In this document: positions 1,985 through 62,049 of the stretch, in pieces | Layout of the letters: each line of letters starts with the position of its first letter | Position numbering within the stretch: the stretch's first letter is position 1 | Assembly (NCBI GenBank): GCA_965203565.1 | Contig: OZ241896.1 | Location: 1,685,728-1,749,727, forward strand | From: Vicinamibacterales bacterium | GTDB lineage: Bacteria > Acidobacteriota > Vicinamibacteria > Vicinamibacterales > UBA8438 | DNA: 64,000 bases | Reading direction: 5' to 3' | Program-made: the position numbers and the translations under genes | Notes under the pieces: generated by a model | Seen by the model: the letters and a program-made list of their open reading frames with translations, nothing else | What the model was told of the DNA's origin: nothing | Databases searched by the model: none

Positions 1985-2022
1985 CGGCCCGTGGTGGAGC
2001 CTCGCGCGGGGCGCCGAGACGC
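1985..2022 (-). repeat. partial copy (terminal arm) of the 158-bp MITE
   Basis: cggcccgtggtggagcctcgcgcggggcgccgagacgc resembles the reverse complement of the element's right end; starts immediately after the cyclase TGA. Confidence 0.65.
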
Positions 2023-3759: not shown

Positions 3760-3863
3760 GGCTCTCCTCCTTTGGTCGAACGTGCTTGGGTTGAACGTGC
3801 AGCGCATGCGTTACCGTAGCATGCCTACCAGCCCGTGGTGATACGATCCGCGCGGATCATTTC

Positions 3864-8960: not shown

Positions 8961-8996
8961 CGCTCTCGGCGCCCCGCAGGGCTCCACCACGGGCTG
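8961..8996 (+). repeat. partial copy (right arm) of the 158-bp MITE
   Basis: cgctctcggcgccccgcagggctccaccacgggctg matches the element's 3' end. Confidence 0.7.
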
Positions 8997-11584: not shown

Positions 11585-12673
11585 TCATGCCGCGTCACGA
11601 ATCCCGATCGCGCGGAGCGCGGCCCGGATCTCGGCTTCGGTGACGTCATCGACGATCACCGTTTCGCCCAATCCGGTCGGCAGCACCATGTGCAGGCGCC
11701 CGTGAAGCACCTTCTTGTCCCGGCGGATGGCGGCGCCGATCCGGGACGCCGGCAGGTCGTTCACCGGCGGCAGGGGGCCGAGCGCGGCGACGAGGCCGGC
11801 GAGCGCGGCGGCGTCGTCGCGCGGGAACAGGCCGCGCGCGGCGGCGACGTCGGCCGCCGCAAGCATCCCGTGGGCGACCGCTTCGCCGTGCCGGAACCGG
11901 CGGTACCCGCTCGCGGCTTCGATGGCGTGCCCTACCGTATGCCCGAAGTTGAGCGTGCGCCGGCGGTCCCCCTCGCGCTCGTCCGCCGAGACGATCGCCG
12001 CCTTGATCCGGCACGATTCGCGGATGACGGGGACGAGCGCCGGGATCTTGCGCTCGACGATGGCCTCGAGGTCGCGGCGCACCCGCTCGAACAGCTCGCG
12101 GCTCGCGATGACGCCGTACTTGACGACCTCGTACAGTCCGGACCGGAACTCGCGCCGGGGCAGCGTGGCGAGCAGCTCCGGGTCGGCGACGACCACGATC
12201 GGTTGGTGGAACGCTCCGATCAGGTTCTTGCCCAACGCATGGTTGACGCCGACCTTGCCGCCGATCGCGCTGTCGACCTGGGCCAGCAGGGTGGTCGGCA
12301 CGTGCGCCAGCCGCACGCCGCGCAGCAGGGTCGCCGCCGCGAAACCGGCCACGTCGCCCACCACGCCGCCCCCGACCGCCACGATCGTGGCGCCGCGGTC
12401 GGCTCCTCGTTCGATCAGCGCGCCGTAGAGCCGGTCGACGGTGCGCAGCGTCTTCGCCCGCTCGCCGTCCGGCATCAACAGCGGCTCCGCGCCCCCGAGC
12501 GTCCGTTCGATCGCCGGCCCGTGCAGCTTCCAGATCCGGGGGCTGGAGACGACGAACCGCCGGCCGGCGCCGCCCGCCTCCGACACGATCCGATCGAGGC
12601 GCCGCAAGAGGCCGCTCCCGACGTGCGCCCGGTAGGCGCGCGATGCGGTCCGTACGTCGATCCCGTCGTTCAT
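11585..12673 (-). CDS. aroB: 3-dehydroquinate synthase
   Basis: GGGVVGDVAGFAAA, PTTLLAQVDSAIGGKVGVN, LNFGHTVGHAIE, HGEAVA. Confidence 0.97.
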   Translation of the reverse strand: MNDGIDVRTASRAYRAHVGSGLLRRLDRIVSEAGGAGRRFVVSSPRIWKLHGPAIERTLGGAEPLLMPDGERAKTLRTVDRLYGALIERGADRGATIVAVGGGVVGDVAGFAAATLLRGVRLAHVPTTLLAQVDSAIGGKVGVNHALGKNLIGAFHQPIVVVADPELLATLPRREFRSGLYEVVKYGVIASRELFERVRRDLEAIVERKIPALVPVIRESCRIKAAIVSADEREGDRRRTLNFGHTVGHAIEAASGYRRFRHGEAVAHGMLAAADVAAARGLFPRDDAAALAGLVAALGPLPPVNDLPASRIGAAIRRDKKVLHGRLHMVLPTGLGETVIVDDVTEAEIRAALRAIGIRDAA

Positions 12674-12703
12674 CAGGAGCGTCGTCGCAGGAGTCGGCCT
12701 GGA

Positions 12704-12862
12704 CAGCCCGTGGCGGAGGTCCCCGCTGCATTCAAGCGGCGATGCATCCCGCCTGACGGCGTTGTTCGTCGGTTGCGTATGCCCAATATGCGCCCTCCTC
12801 ACGCCTTGTCAGGCGGGCGCCTCGCCGCTCTCGGCGCGACGCGGGGATTCCACCACGGGCTG
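12704..12862. mobile_element. palindromic MITE, full copy 1 (159 bp, intergenic)
   Basis: TIR cagcccgtggcgga...tccaccacgggctg; near-identical to 44821..44978 and 45558..45715; flanks TGGA/TGAA (degenerate 4-bp TSD). Confidence 0.9.
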
Positions 12863-12945
12863 TGAAGGGTTGCGTCCTGTAGGATAACAGCAATCGTTTC
12901 GCCGTCGGCGCGGCGCGAAGCGATGGCTGCGCGAGGACGACGTTC

Positions 12946-14535
12946 TTGGCGGACCTGGACTGCGACTTCCTGATCGTCGGCAGCGGCATCGCGGCCTTGC
13001 GGGCCGCAATAGAAGCGGCCGGGGCCGGCGAGATCCTGATGGTGACCAAGGGCGCCGCGGCGCAGGGGAGCACCGCTTTCGCGCAGGGGGGGATCGCGGC
13101 GGCGGTGGGCGAGGGCGACTCGCCGGCGCTCCACGCGGCGGACACGATAGCGGCGGGCGACGGGCTGTGCCGCGCGGAGGCCGTGCAGGCGCTGACCGAG
13201 CGCGGGCCGCGCTACGTCGGCGAACTCCTCGAGTGGGGCGCGCGGTTCGACCGGGATCCCGACGGCCGCGTCGCGCTCGCACGCGAAGGCGCGCACACGG
13301 TTCGGCGGGTGCTGCATGCGCACGATGCGACCGGGCGCGAGATCTGCCGGGCGCTCTGGAAGCGGATCGCCGGCTGCCCCGGCGTTCAGGTGATCGAGCA
13401 CGCCCTGGCGGTGGACGTCGCCGTTGGCGACGGCCGCTGCACAGGCGCCTGGTATCTCGATGCGCACGGCCGCCGCCGCACGGTGGCGGCCGCCGCGACG
13501 CTGCTGGCCACCGGGGGCGCCGGGCAGGTCTTCAGCGAGACGACCAACCCGCCGGTCGCGGCGGGCGACGGGATCGCGATGGCGTACCGCGCCGGCGCGC
13601 GCGTCGCCGATCTGGAGTTCGTGCAGTTCCATCCGACCGCGCTCGACGTCGAAGGCGCGCCCCGTTTCCTGCTCTCCGAAGCGCTCCGGGGCGAGGGAGC
13701 GGCGCTGGTCAACGACGCCGGCGAGCGGTTCATGCAGCGCGTCGATCCGGCCGGCGACCTGGCGCCGCGCGACCGGGTGGCGCGCGCCATCGTCCGCGAG
13801 GCGCAGCGTACGGGTGGGCGCGTGCACCTCACGATGAACGGGCTCGACCCCGCATTCGTCCGCGCGCGGTTCCCGATCATCACCGACGCGTGCCGGCGCG
13901 CCGGCTTCGACCTCGCGCACGATCGGATACCGGTCGGTCCGGCCGCGCACTACGTCATGGGAGGCGTCGACGTGGATCTCGACGGACGGACGTCCGTGGC
14001 CGGCCTGTACGCGGCCGGCGAGGTCGCCTGCACCGGCGTGCACGGGGCGAACCGGCTGGCCAGCAACTCACTCCTCGAAGGGCTGGTGTTCGGCGCCGCC
14101 GCCGGCGCCGCCATGCGCCGCTGGGCGGCCGACTGCGGCCGGCCGCGCGTTGCGCTCCGTGCGCCCGCCGCCGCAGGCCGGCCGGCCGCCGGTCCGCCCG
14201 GCCCGGCCGAGAGCGCCGTGCGCAAGCTGATGTGGCGGGACGTCGGCCTGTTCCGGGACGGGCCGAGGCTGGCCGAGGCGTTGAAGACGCTGGACGCATG
14301 GAGCGCCGCGCTCGAACCCGGAGGGGACGATCCGGCCGCCGTCCGGATCGCGAGCATCGTGACGGTCGGCCGGCTCGTCGCGCGAGCCGCGCTACGGCGC
14401 GAGGAAAGCCGCGGCGCCCACTGCCGGTCCGATTTCCCGGAGCGCAACGACAGGGACTGGGCGCGCCACGCAGCAGAGTCGAAAGAGAGGGTGAGGGGAG
14501 GCGATGCCGGCGAAACCGGACAAGTTCGTCACTGA
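12946..14535 (+). CDS. nadB: L-aspartate oxidase
   Basis: IVGSGIAAL, AQGGIAAA, REGAH, DLEFVQFHPT, GVHGANRLASNSLLEG, REESRGAH. Confidence 0.96.
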   Translation: MADLDCDFLIVGSGIAALRAAIEAAGAGEILMVTKGAAAQGSTAFAQGGIAAAVGEGDSPALHAADTIAAGDGLCRAEAVQALTERGPRYVGELLEWGARFDRDPDGRVALAREGAHTVRRVLHAHDATGREICRALWKRIAGCPGVQVIEHALAVDVAVGDGRCTGAWYLDAHGRRRTVAAAATLLATGGAGQVFSETTNPPVAAGDGIAMAYRAGARVADLEFVQFHPTALDVEGAPRFLLSEALRGEGAALVNDAGERFMQRVDPAGDLAPRDRVARAIVREAQRTGGRVHLTMNGLDPAFVRARFPIITDACRRAGFDLAHDRIPVGPAAHYVMGGVDVDLDGRTSVAGLYAAGEVACTGVHGANRLASNSLLEGLVFGAAAGAAMRRWAADCGRPRVALRAPAAAGRPAAGPPGPAESAVRKLMWRDVGLFRDGPRLAEALKTLDAWSAALEPGGDDPAAVRIASIVTVGRLVARAALRREESRGAHCRSDFPERNDRDWARHAAESKERVRGGDAGETGQVRH

Positions 14536-17701: not shown

Positions 17702-17734
17702 TCTCGGCGCCCCGCGGGGTTCCGCCACGGGCTG
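17702..17734 (+). repeat. partial copy (right arm) of the 158-bp MITE
   Basis: tctcggcgccccgcggggttccgccacgggctg abuts the tatC stop codon. Confidence 0.7.
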
Positions 17735-18960: not shown

Positions 18961-19012
18961 CAGCCGGGATGCAGCGTCCGTCGAATGCAGCGGGGCTTTC
19001 CACCGCGGGCTG
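18961..19012 (-). mobile_element. 52-bp internally deleted MITE derivative with intact TCAA target duplication
   Basis: tcaa|cagccgggatgcagcgtccgtcgaatgcagcggggctttccaccgcgggctg|tcaa; matches the reverse complement of the element's left arm. Confidence 0.75.
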
Positions 19013-44548: not shown

Positions 44549-44820
44549 CAAGACCGCGGCCGCCCGGCGCGCCGCGCGCCGGGAGATCAGGACCAGCGCA
44601 TCCAGCCCGATCCCTCGCGCCCTCGATCGAAGACGCCCGGATGCAGCAGCTCGGCCAGGATCTCCGCCGACTCCACGAGACGCGGGCCGGGACGGTTGAA
44701 GTACCGGTTCCCGTCGGTGACGAAGACGCGGCCGGCCCGCACCGCCGAGAGCGTCCGCCACTCCGGACGCGACGCCAGGGCGGGCATCTCACGCATCGAC
44801 CGGTCGACGTCGAAGCCGCA

Positions 44821-44978
44821 CAGCCCGTGGCGGAGGTCCCCGCTGCATTCGAGCGGCGATGCATCCCGCCTGACGGCGTTGTTCGTCGGTTGCGTATACC
44901 CAATATGCGCCCTTCTCACGCCTTGTCAGCCGGGCGCCTCGCCGCTCTCGGTGCGACGCGGGGTTCCACCACGGGCTG
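44821..44978. mobile_element. palindromic MITE, full copy 2 (158 bp, TSD CGCA)
   Basis: cgca|cagcccgtgg...ccacgggctg|cgca; removing the element plus one TSD restores ATG CCG TGC GGC TTC GAC. Confidence 0.95.
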
Positions 44979-45557
44979 CGCACGGCATGATCGCCACCAC
45001 GTCCGGGTCGCGCGCCGCCAGCTCCTCGACGTCGAGATAGCCGGAGTGGCGGCCCGCTTCGCCGATCATGACGACGCCTCCGGCGATCTCCACCAGCTCC
45101 GGCATCCAGTTGCCGGCATGCATCAACGGATCGATCCACTCGATGCAGGCGATCGACGGGCGGGCGGGCCGCGCCGCAGCCGCCGCGCGGATCGCGTCCA
45201 GCCGCGCGGTGAGCCGGGCGACGAGATCCACGCCGCGATCCGGCGCGTCGAGCGCCGCCGCCACCGTCTTGACGTCCCGCCGGACGTCGCCGAGCGCCAT
45301 CGGCTCCAGCGAAACGAGCGCCGGCCGCGACGCGACCAGATCGCCTACGGCGCGTTCGACGTCCGCGAGGCTGACCGCGCAGACTTCGCACTGCGCCTGC
45401 GTGACGATGACGGTTGGAGCGAGCCGGTCGAGCAGGCTGGCGTCGACATGGTGGACCGACAGCGCGTCGGCCACGATGGCGCGCACCTGCGCGTCGATGG
45501 CGCGGCTCGGCGCGCCGGCGTCCACCTTCGCCGCCGAGCAGACCGGCAGGCGCTCAA

Positions 45558-45715
45558 CAGCCCGTGGTGAAAGTCCCCGCTGCATTCGAGCAGCGATGCA
45601 TCCCGCCTGACGGCGTTGTTCGTCGGTTGCGTATGCCCAATATGCGCCCTCCTCACGCCTTGTCAGCCGGGCGCCTCGCCGCTCTCGGTACGACGCGGGG
45701 TTCCACCACGGGCTG
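45558..45715. mobile_element. palindromic MITE, full copy 3 (158 bp, TSD TCAA)
   Basis: tcaa|cagcccgtgg...ccacgggctg|tcaa; removing the element plus one TSD restores PPSVERLPV. Confidence 0.95.
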
Positions 45716-45955
45716 TCAACCGACGGCGGGAAGTCGCACTCGTGCGACCGGCCGACGAGCTGCTCCTCGAAGCCGAGCGCGGCGACTATCTCGGTCGCGC
45801 TGGCGATGAGCGAGACGATCCGGTGCTCCGCCACCGGGCGCTCACCAGCGCGCCGCCGCCGGTTGGCCGTTCTCCGGCGCCGGCGACGGATCGCGCAACG
45901 AAGCCCGGCTGAACAGCAGCGGCGGAAAGATTCCCATGCTGACCAGGGTGGTTGA

Positions 45956-46030
45956 GGCAGCCCCGGATTCGCACCGGGTTCCCTCTGGCCGCTCCGAACC
46001 TACGCCCGGAGCGCCAGCGCACCGAAGCGA
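45956..46030 (-). ncRNA. cobalamin riboswitch, 5' half only (truncated)
   Basis: AGAGGGAACCCGGTGCGAATCCGGGGCTGCC core upstream of the BtuF-like gene; the usual GCAACTGT and B12-box 3' part is not seen. Confidence 0.7.
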
Positions 46031-46059: not shown

Positions 46060-46087
46060 ACGCAGCGCGAGCGCGTACGTATAATGT

Positions 46088-46310
46088 GAATCTCCTCAAA
46101 TGCGTGTGGGTAGTGGCGGCGCCAGTTCGATGCCTCCGCAGCAGAGGAACAGCATCGAGATGAGGGCGCCGGGGGGTGGAACCCGTATGCGCGCCGCGCA
46201 ATCACCCGCAGCTTGTTGTTGATGCCCTCCACCGGTCCATTCGTCATCCGGGTGTCCAGACAGGCCAGGATGACTTCCGCGTGTTTCCGAATCGTGCGCT
46301 CCAGCTTCAC
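46088..46310 (-). mobile_element. ISL3-family transposase C-terminal remnant with degenerate right end
   Basis: TNGPVEGINNKLRVIARRAYGFH, then frameshift to ALISMLFLCCGGI..LPTRI*; CCCACACGCATTTGAGGAGATTC end followed by AT-rich flank. Confidence 0.8.
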
Positions 46311-46373: not shown

Positions 46374-48126
46374 TCACGCCGGCGGAGGCGGCGACTCGTC
46401 CGACGCGGCCCCGGTCGGACTCGCGCGCGGACGCCACAGCACGCTCATCGCCCAGCCGAGATCCAGCCGCTCTCCGGTCCACGCCGGCAGCGCCGTATCC
46501 GGTCCGATTGCGATCCCCGCCGCCGCCAGCCGCCCGTCCACCGGCGCCAGCGCCGCCCCGGTCCAGCGCGGCGGTTCCGGAACTTCCGGCAGCGGCCGGC
46601 CGTCGGCCCGTGTGAAGCGGACCGCGCCCGTGTCGTCAAGCTTCACCTGCAAGCCGCCTTCGTGCACCGCCCGGTGATGCCGCCGGCAAAGCTGCACCAA
46701 GTTGTCGAGCCGGGTCGCGCCGCCGTGCGCCCAGTGCCGGACGTGGTGCGCATCGCACCGCCGGGCCGTGCAGCCGGGGAAGCGGCAACGCCGATCCCGC
46801 GCCGCGAGCGCGCGGCGCAGCGCCGGCGGGATCGTGCGCGTCTTCCGGCCGACGTTCAACACCTGTCCGGACGCGCCGTGGGTCATGACGACTCGCCCGG
46901 CGTCGCACGCCAGCCGTCGCGCCGTTTCCGTGGAGACACGCAGTCCGCCGGCGTCCTCCAGCACCGCCTGACCACCGTGCGCGGCGCGAGCAGCGTCGTC
47001 GGGACTTGGCCCGTCAGCGCTTCCCGCCGGCCGGCGCGTTCCCGCGGGAACGTACTCTCCGATCGATGCGGCGCCCGTCGGCGCCGAGTCCACCGAGTCG
47101 CCAGCCGCACCCTGCGGGTCGCCGACGCCTGCCGCGGCGTCGCCTCCCGGCTGGCGGATTGCCGCAGTGCGATCGGCCGCTGTGGGTCGGACGACCGAAG
47201 ACGTTCCCGCGGGAACGTACGTCGGGTGATCCGCTCTCTTTGTCATCGCTGCGTCGTGCGCCAGCGTCGCGGCATCCACGTGCAGCACCACCTGGTACCG
47301 GTCGCCCGCCCGCCGTCCCGGGGTCCAGCTACGCCGACAGCGCCGCCTCCGCCACCCGGCCGAGCGCGTCCGCCCGCCGCTGCTCCGACGACGCCTCGGG
47401 CGCGTCTTCTTCCGGAGCGTCCGCCGCCTCCGTCCGCAACTGCTCGCTCGCCGCATCGAGCGACCGCAGCACCGCCGCCCCGACCTCCGGCGCAAGCCGC
47501 CCCCGAATCACCACCATCCCGTCGTCGTCAACCCAGGTCCGCAGCTCCCGGTGCGCGTGCCGCCGTCCGTCTTCGGCAATCTCCGCCGCCCGGTCCACCC
47601 GCCGCCACGCCCGCGTCACCTGTTCGACGTGCACGGCCGTCCCGGCGAGCGCGACGTTGAGCAGCGCCGTTTCGTTCTCCGGCGTCGCCACGCGGGTCAG
47701 CGCCCGCACCTTCGAATAGGAGACCCGCCCGCGCTGCATCGCGGCGCCGATGAGCGGCAACCTGGCTAGGGCGTGGGCGACGCGCACCTTCTCGCGGGCG
47801 GCGCCGGGGGCGAGACCGGTGCGCCAGCTCAGCCAGTGGGCGCAGGAGGAGAAGCCGCCCGCTCGCCAGCCGCCCTGCTCGTCGAATTGGCGGATGAGAA
47901 CGAGCAGAGCGCAGGTGGCGGCCTGGATGCGGGCGGAGAGCTCGGCGATCCGGTCGCCCAACCGGTCGAGATCGAGTCGGTTCGGAACGGCAGCGGCGTC
48001 AATCGCCGTCGGAGCGCAGCTTGGCGAACGAGGTTCGTCCATCGCGCCGGCGCCCGCGTACGGGGGAAGCACGGGACCGGCGGACGGCGAACCCGGAGGC
48101 GGAACCGGTGTGGTTTCGAGGTGCAT
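46374..48126 (-). pseudogene. DUF222 + HNH endonuclease, split by a TAG stop and frameshift near 47330
   Basis: 5' part: SCAHWLSWRTG..AREKVRVAHAL..GRVSYSKVRALTR; 3' part: RYQVVLHVD, ARRLACDA, RDRRCRFPGC, DAHHVRHWAHGG, NLVQLCRRHHRAVH. Confidence 0.88.
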
Positions 48127-48246: not shown

Positions 48247-49707
48247 CAATACTGTTGCTTTAAGACTCACGCCTCCTGTATGCTGTCCCGAAAAGGCGGG
48301 AAACGCGGAGGGGTGGATGTCCCGAACACAAGCGGTTCTGCTTGGTGGTCCTCGGCTGTCGGACTATTTGAGCATCGGGGTGCTCGCGCAAGTGTACCCG
48401 ATCACGTCGGTGCGCGCGGCGTTGGCTTCGTGTGGTCGGGCAAGCGGTCGGCAGCGAGATCTGCCGGCCGAAGCGATGGTGTATTACGTCGTGGCTCTGG
48501 GGCTGTTCCGGTCGGTGTCGGCGCGGGAGGTGCTGCGCTGCTTGCTGGAGGGACTGCGTTGGGTGTCGTCGGACTCGGCGGCGTTGCGGGTGTCGGGAAA
48601 GTCGTCGATTTCGCGTGCGCGTGCGCGCTTGGGACCGGAACCGTTCGAGGCGTTGCGCGCGGTGCGGGTCAAGCCGCTGGCGGATCCGGCGACGCGCGGG
48701 GCGTGGTATCGCAACCGTCGCCTGGTAGCGTTCGACGGGTCGGCGTTGAACGTGCCGGACGAGGCGGGGAACCGGGAGACGTTCGGGGCGCCCGGGGCGT
48801 CACGGGGCCGTGCCGCTTTCCCGCAGGTGCGCTTGACGGCGCTGGTGGAGTTGGGGACGCGGGCGGCGTTCGCCTGGCGGGCGGGGGCGTATGGCGAGTC
48901 GGAGGAGACGCAGGTCGAGACGCTGCTGCCGTGGTTGTCGGCGGGGATGCTGGTGCTGGCGGACCGGGGCTATTGTGGCTTCCCACTCTGGCGGCGGGCG
49001 TCGGACACCGGCGCCGACCTGCTGTGGCGCATGAAGGCGAATCTGCGCCTGCCGGTACTGGAACGCTTCGCCGACGGTTCCTACCGGAGCATGCTCCGGG
49101 GCAGCGGACAGGATCGCCGGCGCAGTCGGGGCGTCTGCCCCGTGCGGGTCGTCGAGTACACGCTGGACGGCGCCAGCGGCGAGGTCTACCGCCTGGCCAC
49201 CACTCTGCTCGACCCGGCCGTTGCGCCGGCGGCCGAGATGGCCGCCCTGTACCATGAGCGTTGGGAAGTGGAAACTACCTATGATGAGGTCAAGACGCAC
49301 ATCCTGGGTCCCGGCGCCATCCTGCGCAGCAAGACGCCGGACCTGGTGCTGCAGGAAGTGCACGGTCTGATGCTGGCGCATTACGCGGTGCGGCGCCTGA
49401 TCTACAAGGCGGCCCGCAGGGTGGACGAGGACCCGGACCGTCTTTCGTTCGTCCACGCCGTGCGGGTCTTGCGCCGCCGTGTCGAGCACCCCGGCGTTTC
49501 CCCCCTCGGCGCATGAGCAGCTCCACGACCGCGTGCTGGAGGAGATTCTGGAAGAGCGAGCGGTCTCCAGTCGCGGTCAGAAGAAACCGCGCTGCGTCAA
49601 GCGGAAGATGAGCGGCTACCCGCTCCGCCGCCCTGGCCCGGTGTCCCGCCGCAAGTGGGACTGGACGCCGCACATTGTTGCACCAGAACGCTAAAGCAAC
49701 AGTATTG
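48247..49707 (+). mobile_element. IS4-family insertion sequence (complete, 1461 bp)
   Basis: TIR caatactgttgcttta / taaagcaacagtattg; 10-bp TSD cagctaaagc at 48237..48246 and 49708..49717. Confidence 0.95.
48317..49516 (+). CDS. IS4 family transposase
   Basis: SSISRARARLG, AFDGS, LADRGY, YHERWEVETTYDEVK (YREK motif). Confidence 0.93.
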   Translation: MSRTQAVLLGGPRLSDYLSIGVLAQVYPITSVRAALASCGRASGRQRDLPAEAMVYYVVALGLFRSVSAREVLRCLLEGLRWVSSDSAALRVSGKSSISRARARLGPEPFEALRAVRVKPLADPATRGAWYRNRRLVAFDGSALNVPDEAGNRETFGAPGASRGRAAFPQVRLTALVELGTRAAFAWRAGAYGESEETQVETLLPWLSAGMLVLADRGYCGFPLWRRASDTGADLLWRMKANLRLPVLERFADGSYRSMLRGSGQDRRRSRGVCPVRVVEYTLDGASGEVYRLATTLLDPAVAPAAEMAALYHERWEVETTYDEVKTHILGPGAILRSKTPDLVLQEVHGLMLAHYAVRRLIYKAARRVDEDPDRLSFVHAVRVLRRRVEHPGVSPLGA

Positions 49708-50166: not shown

Positions 50167-50324
50167 GCGCTGTGGAACTGTGGGAATCTCGCGGCCTCGG
50201 CGCCGGCCCGATCGCCCGCGGTCGCCCGCGAGATTTCCAACGGACTGTGGGCGCCCGTGTCCCCGCTCTGCGGATGCAGCCCGTTGCGGACCGGGCGTCC
50301 ATAGGCCGGGCAGGTCCACAGCGC
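50167..50324 (-). ncRNA. putative structured RNA downstream of IS3 orfB
   Basis: Closing stem gcgctgtgga/tccacagcgc enclosing two long hairpins. Confidence 0.55.
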
Positions 50325-50416: not shown

Positions 50417-51373
50417 TCATGCCCTCCCGGTGTTCCCCGCAGCAACGCCGGTGACGACGCCGGCCGGCGTCGGCGTGTCGGCCGCGAACCGGCTCGTGGG
50501 TGCGAGCGCCTTGCCGGACCGGTCCGCGGCCGCCGTCTCGTGGAGACGTTCGAAGGCGAGCGGCGAGAGGTAGCCCAGCGAGGAATGACGCCGCCGCGTG
50601 TTGTACCACCCTTCGATGAACGCGAACACGGCCGTCCGCGCCTCGGCGTGCGTCGCCCACCGCGTGCGGGCGAGCAACTCGCACTCGAGCGTCGCGAAGA
50701 AGCTCTCGGCCAGCGCGTTGTCGAAACAGTCGCCGACCGAACCCATCGATAGCTGCACGCCCCATCGCTGACAGCGGGCGCCGAAGGCCAGCGACGTGTA
50801 CTGGCAACCTGGATCGGAATGGTGGATCACCGCCGACGGCCGGCGCTGCTGCACGGCCATCTCCAGCGCCTCGGTCACCAGCGCCGTGCGCAGGTGCGCC
50901 GCCAGCGCCCAGCCCACGACCCGCCGGCTGAACACGTCCACGACGACGGCCAGGTAGAGCAAGCCGGCCTGTGTCGGAACGTAGGTGATGTCGGCGACCC
51001 ACAGACGGTTCGGCGCCACTGCCTCGAAACGGCGATCGACCCGGTCCGGGGCTGGCCGGACCCGCAGCGCTCGGCGCGTCGTTCGCGGCCCGCGGCGACG
51101 GCTCACGCCCGCAATGCCCGCCGAGCGCATCACCCGCGCCACCCGCTTGCGGCTCACTGCGGCTCCGGCGGCGGACAGTTCCGCGTGAATCCGGGGCGCG
51201 CCATACGTCCCGCGGCTGTGGACGTGAATCGCCCGCACGCGGGCCGTCAGATCCGCGTCGGCCTGCACGCGGGTGGACGGACGCCGCTGACGCCACGCAT
51301 AGTACCCGCTCGTGGAGACACCGAGCACGCGGGCCATGGTGGCGATGCGGAAGCGGGCCTGATGCGCACTCAT
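50417..51373 (-). CDS. IS3 family transposase OrfB (integrase core)
   Basis: TYGAPRI, LWVADITY, IHHSDPGCQY, DNALAESFFATLECE, WYNTRRRHSSLGYLSP. Confidence 0.95.
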   Translation of the reverse strand: MSAHQARFRIATMARVLGVSTSGYYAWRQRRPSTRVQADADLTARVRAIHVHSRGTYGAPRIHAELSAAGAAVSRKRVARVMRSAGIAGVSRRRGPRTTRRALRVRPAPDRVDRRFEAVAPNRLWVADITYVPTQAGLLYLAVVVDVFSRRVVGWALAAHLRTALVTEALEMAVQQRRPSAVIHHSDPGCQYTSLAFGARCQRWGVQLSMGSVGDCFDNALAESFFATLECELLARTRWATHAEARTAVFAFIEGWYNTRRRHSSLGYLSPLAFERLHETAAADRSGKALAPTSRFAADTPTPAGVVTGVAAGNTGRA

Positions 51374-51678: not shown

Positions 51679-52174
51679 CGCGAACACCTCCTCACTCCCA
51701 ACAGGATCAGGTGTCCGCAAAACCGGGTCAACTCCAGTCGGCGGTGAGTCCGCAAGGCGTGCTGCGGTTCATGGTGGTCGACGGGCGGATGACGGCGGGG
51801 CGATTCATCGAGTTTCTCAAGCGTCTGCTGCACAACCAGACCCGCCCGATCTACCTCATCGTCGATCAGCATGCCGCGCACCGGGCCCGGCTGGTCGATG
51901 CGTTCGTGCAGTCGACGCACGGCCGCCTGCGGCTGTTCTTCCTGCCGTCGTACTCTCCGGAACTGAATCCGGATGAATTGGTATGGAATCATCTGAAGAC
52001 GCATGGGACTCGCAAGCGCCTGCTGCAAACGCCGGCGGAGCTCAGGCGCTACGTCCTCAGCCACCTGCGTTCCTTGCAGCGCACCCCCGCCCGTGTGCGC
52101 GGGTTCTTTGGAAAGCCCAGCCTCCTCTATATAAGCTCCTAGTGTAATCAAACTAAGGGGTTCCTTAAAATATT

Positions 52175-61984: not shown

Positions 61985-62049
61985 TCACGCCTTGTCAGCC
62001 AAGCGCCTCACCGCTCTCGGCGCCCCGCGCGGGGCTCCCACCAGGGCAG
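61985..62049 (+). repeat. degenerate right half of the 158-bp MITE
   Basis: tcacgccttgtcagccaagcgcctcaccgctctcggcgcccc...cccaccagggcag. Confidence 0.7.

Follow-up and report, generated by a model that had tools for sequence, protein, structure and literature searches.

The repeat that begins at position 12704 of the window (the whole 64-kb stretch of DNA that was analysed) is a real, recently mobile MITE of 158 bases, and represents a well-documented case of a common type of mobile DNA. It is best explained, with a probability of about 0.88, as a non-autonomous DDE transposon (MITE) of 158–159 bp whose movement, in trans, is catalysed by the transposase encoded by a 1470-bp insertion sequence (IS). 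Six features characteristic of a MITE were found together: small size with no transposase gene, TIRs, TSDs of fixed length, many dispersed copies, termini shared with an IS, and empty sites.

Within the window, the TIR pattern was matched 15 times with two or fewer mismatches, where 2.97 ± 1.75 matches were expected and none of 100 shuffles reached 15. Three full copies align along 158–159 nt, with flanking DNA that differs from the edge of the element onward, and are accompanied by a mini copy and four arm relics. These features and the genes next to or around the full copies are as follows.

12704..12862, + strand: full MITE copy, subfamily A, 159 bp, in a divergent intergenic region, flanking 4-mers TGGA / TGAA
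11585-12673, - strand: 3-dehydroquinate synthase gene, on one side of the 12704 copy
12946-14535, + strand: FAD-binding aspartate-oxidase-like gene, on the other side of the 12704 copy
44590..45999, - strand: periplasmic-binding-protein gene (Pfam Peripla_BP_2), broken by the copies at 44821 and 45558
44821..44978, + strand: full MITE copy, 158 bp, TSD CGCA/CGCA, inside the Peripla_BP_2 gene
45558..45715, + strand: full MITE copy, 158 bp, TSD TCAA/TCAA, inside the same Peripla_BP_2 gene as the 44821 copy
18961..19012, - strand: 52-bp mini copy, equal to the left 52 nt of the subfamily-B form, TSD TCAA/TCAA
8961..8996, + strand: right-arm relic, element positions 123-158, 89% identity, local score 52
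17702..17734, + strand: right-arm relic, element positions 126-158, 91% identity, score 51, directly 3' of the tatC gene
61985..62046, + strand: right-half relic, element positions about 96-156, local score 74
1987..2019, - strand: short right-arm relic, reversed, score 37 (shuffle maximum 30), just past the stop TGA at 1982-1984

The TIRs, CAGCCCGTGG...CCACGGGCTG, are perfect in the copies at 12704 and 44821. The original prediction had placed full copies at 12704, 44821 and 45558, a 52-bp mini copy at 18961 (recovered here both by BLAST and by local alignment) and arms at 8961, 17702, 61985 and about 1985; all of these stand, the four arms scoring above the shuffle maxima of 26–32 that were obtained for the local score in the relic controls. 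It had counted at least nine traces in all, of which eight are supported (three full copies, one mini copy and four arm relics), whereas a solo 12-bp TIR at 3829..3840 drops out. The latter was rejected as a trace of the element, as it is a 12-nt match with no alignment beyond it, and the best score in its 100-nt segment (24) lies elsewhere in the segment and does not exceed the shuffle maximum of 28. A TIR-like match at 50277, near an IS3-like ORF, was also rejected, with the rest of the element absent there. The TSDs proposed for the full copies were found at 44821 (CGCA) and 45558 (TCAA), but the 12704 copy has an imperfect TGGA/TGAA in place of the TCAA that had been assigned to it. The mini copy terminates in an internal pseudo-end, ...CCCGGCTG, and is itself a transposed element; it is also present in the bridging contigs of two sequencing runs, X2 and X7.

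The genome to which the window belongs (G000) is a single contig of 3.95 Mb with about 72% G+C. A BLAST search of this genome revealed 268 HSPs, comprising 169 full-length copies (158–159 bp; 80 on the + strand and 89 on the - strand) and 99 further partial ones. A perfect 4-bp TSD was observed at 126 of the 169 full copies, the remaining 43 being without one. Duplication lengths of 3 and 5–8 gave no case and no alternative offset of the boundaries fits the 169 copies, such that the predicted 4-bp pattern is borne out genome-wide. The consensus of the duplicated 4-mer across these copies is YTRR, and it is flanked by C at -5 in 127/169 and by G at +5 in 114/169. The strict 6-mer motif is matched by just 35 of the 169 sites; the target, C-YTRR-G, is loose and loosely palindromic. 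Two subfamilies, A (n = 140) and B (n = 29), are about 85% alike and are distinguished by GAGCGGCG/CGCCGCTC versus GACGGGCG/CGCCCGTC. Among the 169 copies, 51 have an identical twin and 62 pairs are identical; the family has therefore undergone recent bursts. The longest open frames in the element are of 52 codons, and it codes for no transposase.

Insertion at the 12704 site could be compared with related genomes and populations. Both flanking genes are present in 13/13 congeners, with coordinates that leave a gap too short for the element, and in an alignment of nine congeners the gap coincided cleanly with the element in 9/9. In a Logan contig from run X12, which bridges the site with 4202 + 1266 aligned letters and 42 differences, there are 11 letters where the window has 171, i.e. 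an empty 12704 site. The X2 and X7 contigs, in contrast, extend 25–28 nt into the 12704 element. Consequently, the 12704 copy is polymorphic among populations that are roughly 99% identical. The empty-site polymorphism that had been anticipated for the family is thus found at 12704, in congeners and in the X12 contig, and at 44821/45558 in congeners (see below), and the MITE family is recently active and still polymorphic in natural populations.

Several other observations were made around this site. In one congener, at locus L119 (G011:C143), the intergenic region with the empty 12704 site carries a related, shorter foldback element of ~100 nt with the ends GGCCCGTGG...CCACGGACC; it lies about 45 nt downstream of that site and represents a separate insertion by a sister MITE. 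The 12704 MITE adjoins a short non-coding motif at 12868-12900 (...TGTAGGATARCAGCAAACG...) that shortly precedes the FAD-binding aspartate-oxidase-like gene, is conserved in 9/9 aligned congeners and could represent an operator or 5'-UTR element. Contig depth summed over the bin that contains the MITE (window 12537-12903) was roughly 140–270 times that of the flanks in 4/4 runs, an excess that is not a copy count and that fits a very high copy number of the MITE family in those communities.

The MITE was found in 13/13 other genomes of the genus and in 22/24 of the family, and within the order it extends to several further families. When the phylum was sampled evenly, 18 of 301 genomes had a match at E <= 1e-15; 11 of the 18 come from outside the order, one of them, G186, being flagged as unpublished. 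A 22-mer core of the element occurs at at least 94 loci in named species genomes. Among the 80 matches listed, 69 are Vicinamibacterales or Vicinamibacteria MAGs, with the others coming from Thermodesulfobacteriota MAG071 (5), Bryobacterales (2), Ca. Marinacidobacterium (2), Acidobacteria bacterium (1) and Sedimenticola (1); full-length copies among the matches listed have up to 95% identity to the window copy. A plasmid collection searched with blastn at a distant setting contained no match to the element, and in the IMG/VR viral contigs there were 0 exact matches of the 22-mer core and no virus-host link through the element was found. The sequencing runs that hold 0.8–0.9 of the window's words are labelled sponge or marine metagenomes. 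Contigs from X2 and X12 (sponge metagenomes) and X7 (organism B) are about 99% or better over >4 kb, and X10 (marine metagenome) matches only as pieces of about 0.4–1.1 kb. The host is a sponge acidobacterium, of sponge or marine habitat.

Gene positions were taken from a purpose-made codon-usage caller (3079 calls, 88% coverage), which replaced an earlier GC3-threshold caller that covered 69% of the genome; its calls are approximate and split genes at insertions. With these calls, 167 of the 169 copies are not inside any called gene. A test that does not stop at split calls, in which an open coding-like frame was followed through the reconstructed empty site, placed 16/169 copies in genes, compared with 1203/2000 random positions. 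As 3727 of 4316 strict-motif sites lie inside called genes, the intergenic excess is not due to the location of targets, and points instead to the loss of genic insertions. The 3' ends of adjacent genes abut the element exactly in 28 of 159 cases, and a stop triplet is present on one strand within 101/169 TSDs; the proximity of copies to stop codons arises because the target contains TGA, TAG or TAA. Most surviving insertions are intergenic, and in many of them the duplicated 4 bp include a stop codon; about one in ten are intragenic, two of these in one gene of the window.

That gene, the Peripla_BP_2 gene at 44590..45999, has a homologue that is continuous over both insertion sites in four congeners (L135-L138). 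Each insertion with its TSD adds 162 nt (54 codons) to the gene, and a high G+C signal is seen in the same codon phase on all three gene pieces. In the 44821 copy a stop enters the frame of the gene 54 nt into the insert, and in the 45558 copy this frame is open throughout. Three of the six reading frames of the consensus are stop-free and the 162 nt of element plus TSD are divisible by three, so that some genic insertions lengthen the protein by 54 residues and do not truncate it. An in-frame test on the 16 genic copies gave mixed results, with several bringing in stops. The possibility that the two copies form a composite transposon was rejected, given that each has a separate TSD. Close pairs of genic insertions also occur elsewhere in G000:C1, at 1461771/1462319, 3401461/3403836, 3780857/3784071 and 3868651/3869990 (the window pair being 1730548/1731285), and suggest that certain genes or gene arrays withstand, or draw, repeated insertions. 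Beyond the Peripla_BP_2 gene, a segment of ~215 nt at about 46085-46300 has 94% identical repeats at three other places in the genome, and two adjoining ORFs on the - strand, 46377-46964 (DUF222 C-terminus and HNH) and 47332-47961 (DUF222 N-terminus), look like two parts of what was a single DUF222-HNH gene.

The 12704 copy also contains a sequence that resembles a promoter.

12785..12812, - strand: sigma-70-like motif CTGACA, 16 nt, CATATT (consensus match 9/12), directed toward the dehydroquinate synthase gene

The expected number of such motifs in 50 shuffles was 0.0, and the motif is kept in 152/169 genomic copies, on the strand opposite to the reference orientation, where it is followed by GGAGG and TTG. 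For copies located between genes of the same direction, the motif points along the genes in 63 cases and against them in 38 (binomial p = 0.017), and in 47 versus 27 where the downstream start is within 150 nt. These data raise the possibility that the MITE is also a host-adopted regulatory module, in which insertions upstream of genes would drive or re-start expression and thereby bias the orientation that is kept. On balance this seems rather unlikely. The bias is weak, and the 63:38 split is one of several uncorrected tests that rest on crude gene calls; the corresponding splits are 60 to 40 (p = 0.057) for copies that a start codon follows within 100 nt and 56 to 42 (p = 0.19) for those that a stop codon precedes by no more than 60 nt, and a 9/12 match to the consensus is no proof of promoter activity. 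The orientation of this predicted motif is thus a weak lead. It is also improbable that the MITE is a portable expression cassette, with a putative outward promoter, SD and TTG on one strand, whose foldback would be kept for that function or for transposition through cruciform or hairpin DNA. If this were true, dozens of genes in Vicinamibacterales, sponge-associated or not, would have had their upstream regions rewired as the MITE spread.

A search of G000 with TIR pairs at larger spacing revealed a recurrent 1470-bp IS with seven copies about 99% alike, none of which is in the window. TIR-like pairs that recur at spacings of 1344, 205 and 700 bp were not counted as members of the family, on account of constant flanks or poorly matching ends. 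The ends of the IS in G000 are CAGCCCGTGGTAAAAGTC... and ...CCTCGGACTG; the left end is equal to the MITE end at 17/18 nt and the right end is degenerate (CAGTCCGAGG). Its flanking 4-mers are equal in six of the seven copies, and among those six there is a C at -5 in five and a G at +5 in all six. Homologous ISs of 1458–1492 bp in relatives carry CAGCCCGTGG...CCACGGGCTG at both ends, are the same as the MITE end across 18–20 nt, and have TSDs of CTAG, TTAG or CTAT.

The 458-aa product of the IS contains the Pfam domains DUF772 (62.8 bits) and DDE_Tnp_1 (32.7 bits), with DDE_Tnp_1_6 at 24.3 just short of its cutoff of 25.1. The best of six NCBIfam models is IS1182 (NF033551), at 178.4 bits and under the cutoff of 270, and the IS5 models are all under their cutoffs too (IS5_4 90.6/140, IS5_1 40.3/275 and IS5_2 35.7/140). 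By these profile scores the partner appears to be of IS5/IS1182 type and is called a member of neither family, in agreement with the IS5- or IS1182-like enzyme that the 4-bp TSD had led the original prediction to propose. The window contains transposase ORFs of its own, which were identified with Pfam and form a small IS cluster.

48476-49513: IS4-like transposase ORF
50420-51373: IS3-like transposase ORF
51759-52139: IS630-like transposase ORF, truncated

The IS4-like element as a whole extends over 48247-49707, the lowest-G+C part of the window, and is bounded by perfect 16-nt TIRs, CAATACTGTTGCTTTA; as had been stated, these are unlike the MITE TIR. Mobilisation in trans by a transposase from outside the window, also part of the original prediction, is instead supported by the 1470-bp IS, which has the same termini, 4-bp TSDs and flank preference as the MITE. 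With termini, TSD length and flank preference in agreement, the 458-aa transposase is the probable agent of MITE movement: it would recognise the MITE ends in trans, make a 4-bp staggered cut at C-YTRR-G and insert the element, with duplication of the 4 bp.

Alternatively, the MITE could be moved by an enzyme other than the 1470-bp IS transposase, and the common 18–20-nt termini would then reflect shared ancestry only. The likeness between MITE and IS ends after about 18–21 terminal nt, with no similarity past the termini, and thus the MITE does not derive from the 1470-bp IS by a simple internal deletion. Moreover, the transposase was found in 16/41 relatives (E <= 1e-20) as compared with 32/41 for the MITE (E <= 0.001), and in the complete genomes G003, G006, G018 and G024 the MITE is present and the transposase was not found; another enzyme may therefore move the MITE there, or the copies may be orphaned. 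For G000 itself, however, a different mover is doubtful, since IS and MITE agree in TSD length and in the C(-5)/G(+5) preference, and a tblastn search of this genome with the transposase found the seven IS copies and their fragments but no more distant homologue. Furthermore, the nearly identical IS copies and the identical pairs of MITE copies both appear recently active. Movement of the MITE by the transposase of the 1470-bp IS is thus the preferred reading.

The whole element had been predicted to fold as one long imperfect hairpin, and its computed fold is indeed a single long hairpin of -100.6 kcal/mol (z = -8.45), with 0/200 shuffles as good. Compensatory changes in the stem, which had been put forward as a check, were sought in an alignment of 46 copies composed of three from the window, six diverse ones from G000 and 37 full-length ones drawn from the at least 94 loci outside it. 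The last were retrieved by an exact 22-mer in the right arm, which freezes those columns and cannot create covariation. Double-sided changes were observed at 15 of 48 predicted pairs, compared with a shuffled mean of 5.3 (0/500 reach 15) and 0–3 when the partner was slid. Among rare variants in the 169 copies, there are 42 G.T and 53 A.C mismatches; as G.T is not commoner than A.C, there is no wobble tolerance on one strand and no sign of selection on a one-strand RNA. The arms are thus observed to co-vary, and these paired changes, which maintain the near-perfect foldback symmetry, most likely operate at the level of the DNA or of the master copy. This could take place by selection on transposing copies, or by template-switch correction of quasi-palindromes, an established mechanism able to keep arm symmetry.

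It is very unlikely that the hairpin acts as RNA when co-transcribed, as an mRNA stabiliser, RNase target or terminator whose stem is kept by RNA-fold selection (a role of this sort has been proposed for some enterobacterial and neisserial repeats), because, in spite of the strong predicted fold, the covarying stem, the position of nearly all copies outside called genes and the exact abutment of some gene 3' ends, G.T mismatches are no more frequent than A.C, no T-run or terminator-like site was found in the element, the split of orientations with respect to the upstream gene (56 to 42) is not significant, and stop adjacency is explained by the target. Comparison with Rfam, likewise proposed at the outset, left the element without a matching RNA family: at the gathering score two tRNAs and no element match were found, and the best sub-threshold hit (E <= 1) was to a generic hairpin model at 24.1 bits against a threshold of 79.

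The partner IS was compared with the two families closest to it. Members of the IS1182 family are about 1.3–1.9 kb in size, a range within which its 1470 bp falls, and like them it encodes one DDE transposase that carries DUF772 at its N-terminus, IS1182 being its best curated model. ISPse1 of Paracoccus seriniphilus, an IS1182-family member, has 1653 bp, IR 16/16 and DR 4 (PMC3281130), and the partner is similar in its size of about 1.5 kb, its short TIRs and its 4-bp TSD, a comparison that is by description and not by sequence. Unlike called IS1182 members, it reaches 178 bits where the cutoff is 270. IS5 of E. coli and IS5-group MITE derivatives duplicate 4 bp at YTAR, and the present system resembles this group in its 4-bp TSD, its pyrimidine-T-purine-purine core, the DDE_Tnp_1 domain and the CTAG-type targets of the relatives' ISs. 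It differs from the IS5 group in the IS5_4 score (90.6 vs 140), in termini that begin CAG and in a looser target (YTRR with C/G flanks).

As a repeat family, the MITE has counterparts in other bacteria. The Correia (NEMIS) elements of Neisseria are high-copy, roughly 100–160 bp long and mostly intergenic, with TIR hairpins, promoter-like signals and a TA duplication. The MITE is like them in copy number, size, mostly intergenic position, hairpin-capable TIRs and a promoter-like signal, and unlike them in that its TSD is 4 bp and not TA, it belongs to another phylum, the whole element is self-complementary and a candidate partner IS has been identified. Rickettsia palindromic elements (RPE) are palindromic repeats that lie inside protein genes without breaking the frame. 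The 162 nt (54 codons), the three open frames of six in the consensus and the read-through of the 45558 copy recall these elements; in contrast to them, 16/169 copies are genic, several of these with stops, and the clear TSDs and IS partner indicate ordinary transposition. REPs are associated with a tyrosine (RAYT) transposase. REP/BIME are described as palindromes of 20–40 bp (PMC3733652), and the MITE shares with them a high copy number, an extragenic position and palindromy, but at 158 bp is four to eight times longer and has TIRs, 4-bp TSDs and a link to a DDE transposase. In those parts of the literature on MITEs in Acidobacteria, Vicinamibacterales transposable elements and IS1182 MITEs that were accessible, no description of the element was found.

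Knowledge of how MITEs work is unchanged by this case. It provides, for a little-studied and mostly uncultured order, a complete and consistent example of an active MITE-IS pair, with target motif, partner IS, insertion polymorphism and gene disruption. At about 170 copies per genome, the element breaks short-read assemblies of these organisms and splits gene calls. The covariation between its arms constitutes a clean data set on how foldback elements keep their symmetry, and its insertion polymorphisms are usable as strain markers for sponge and other metagenomes.
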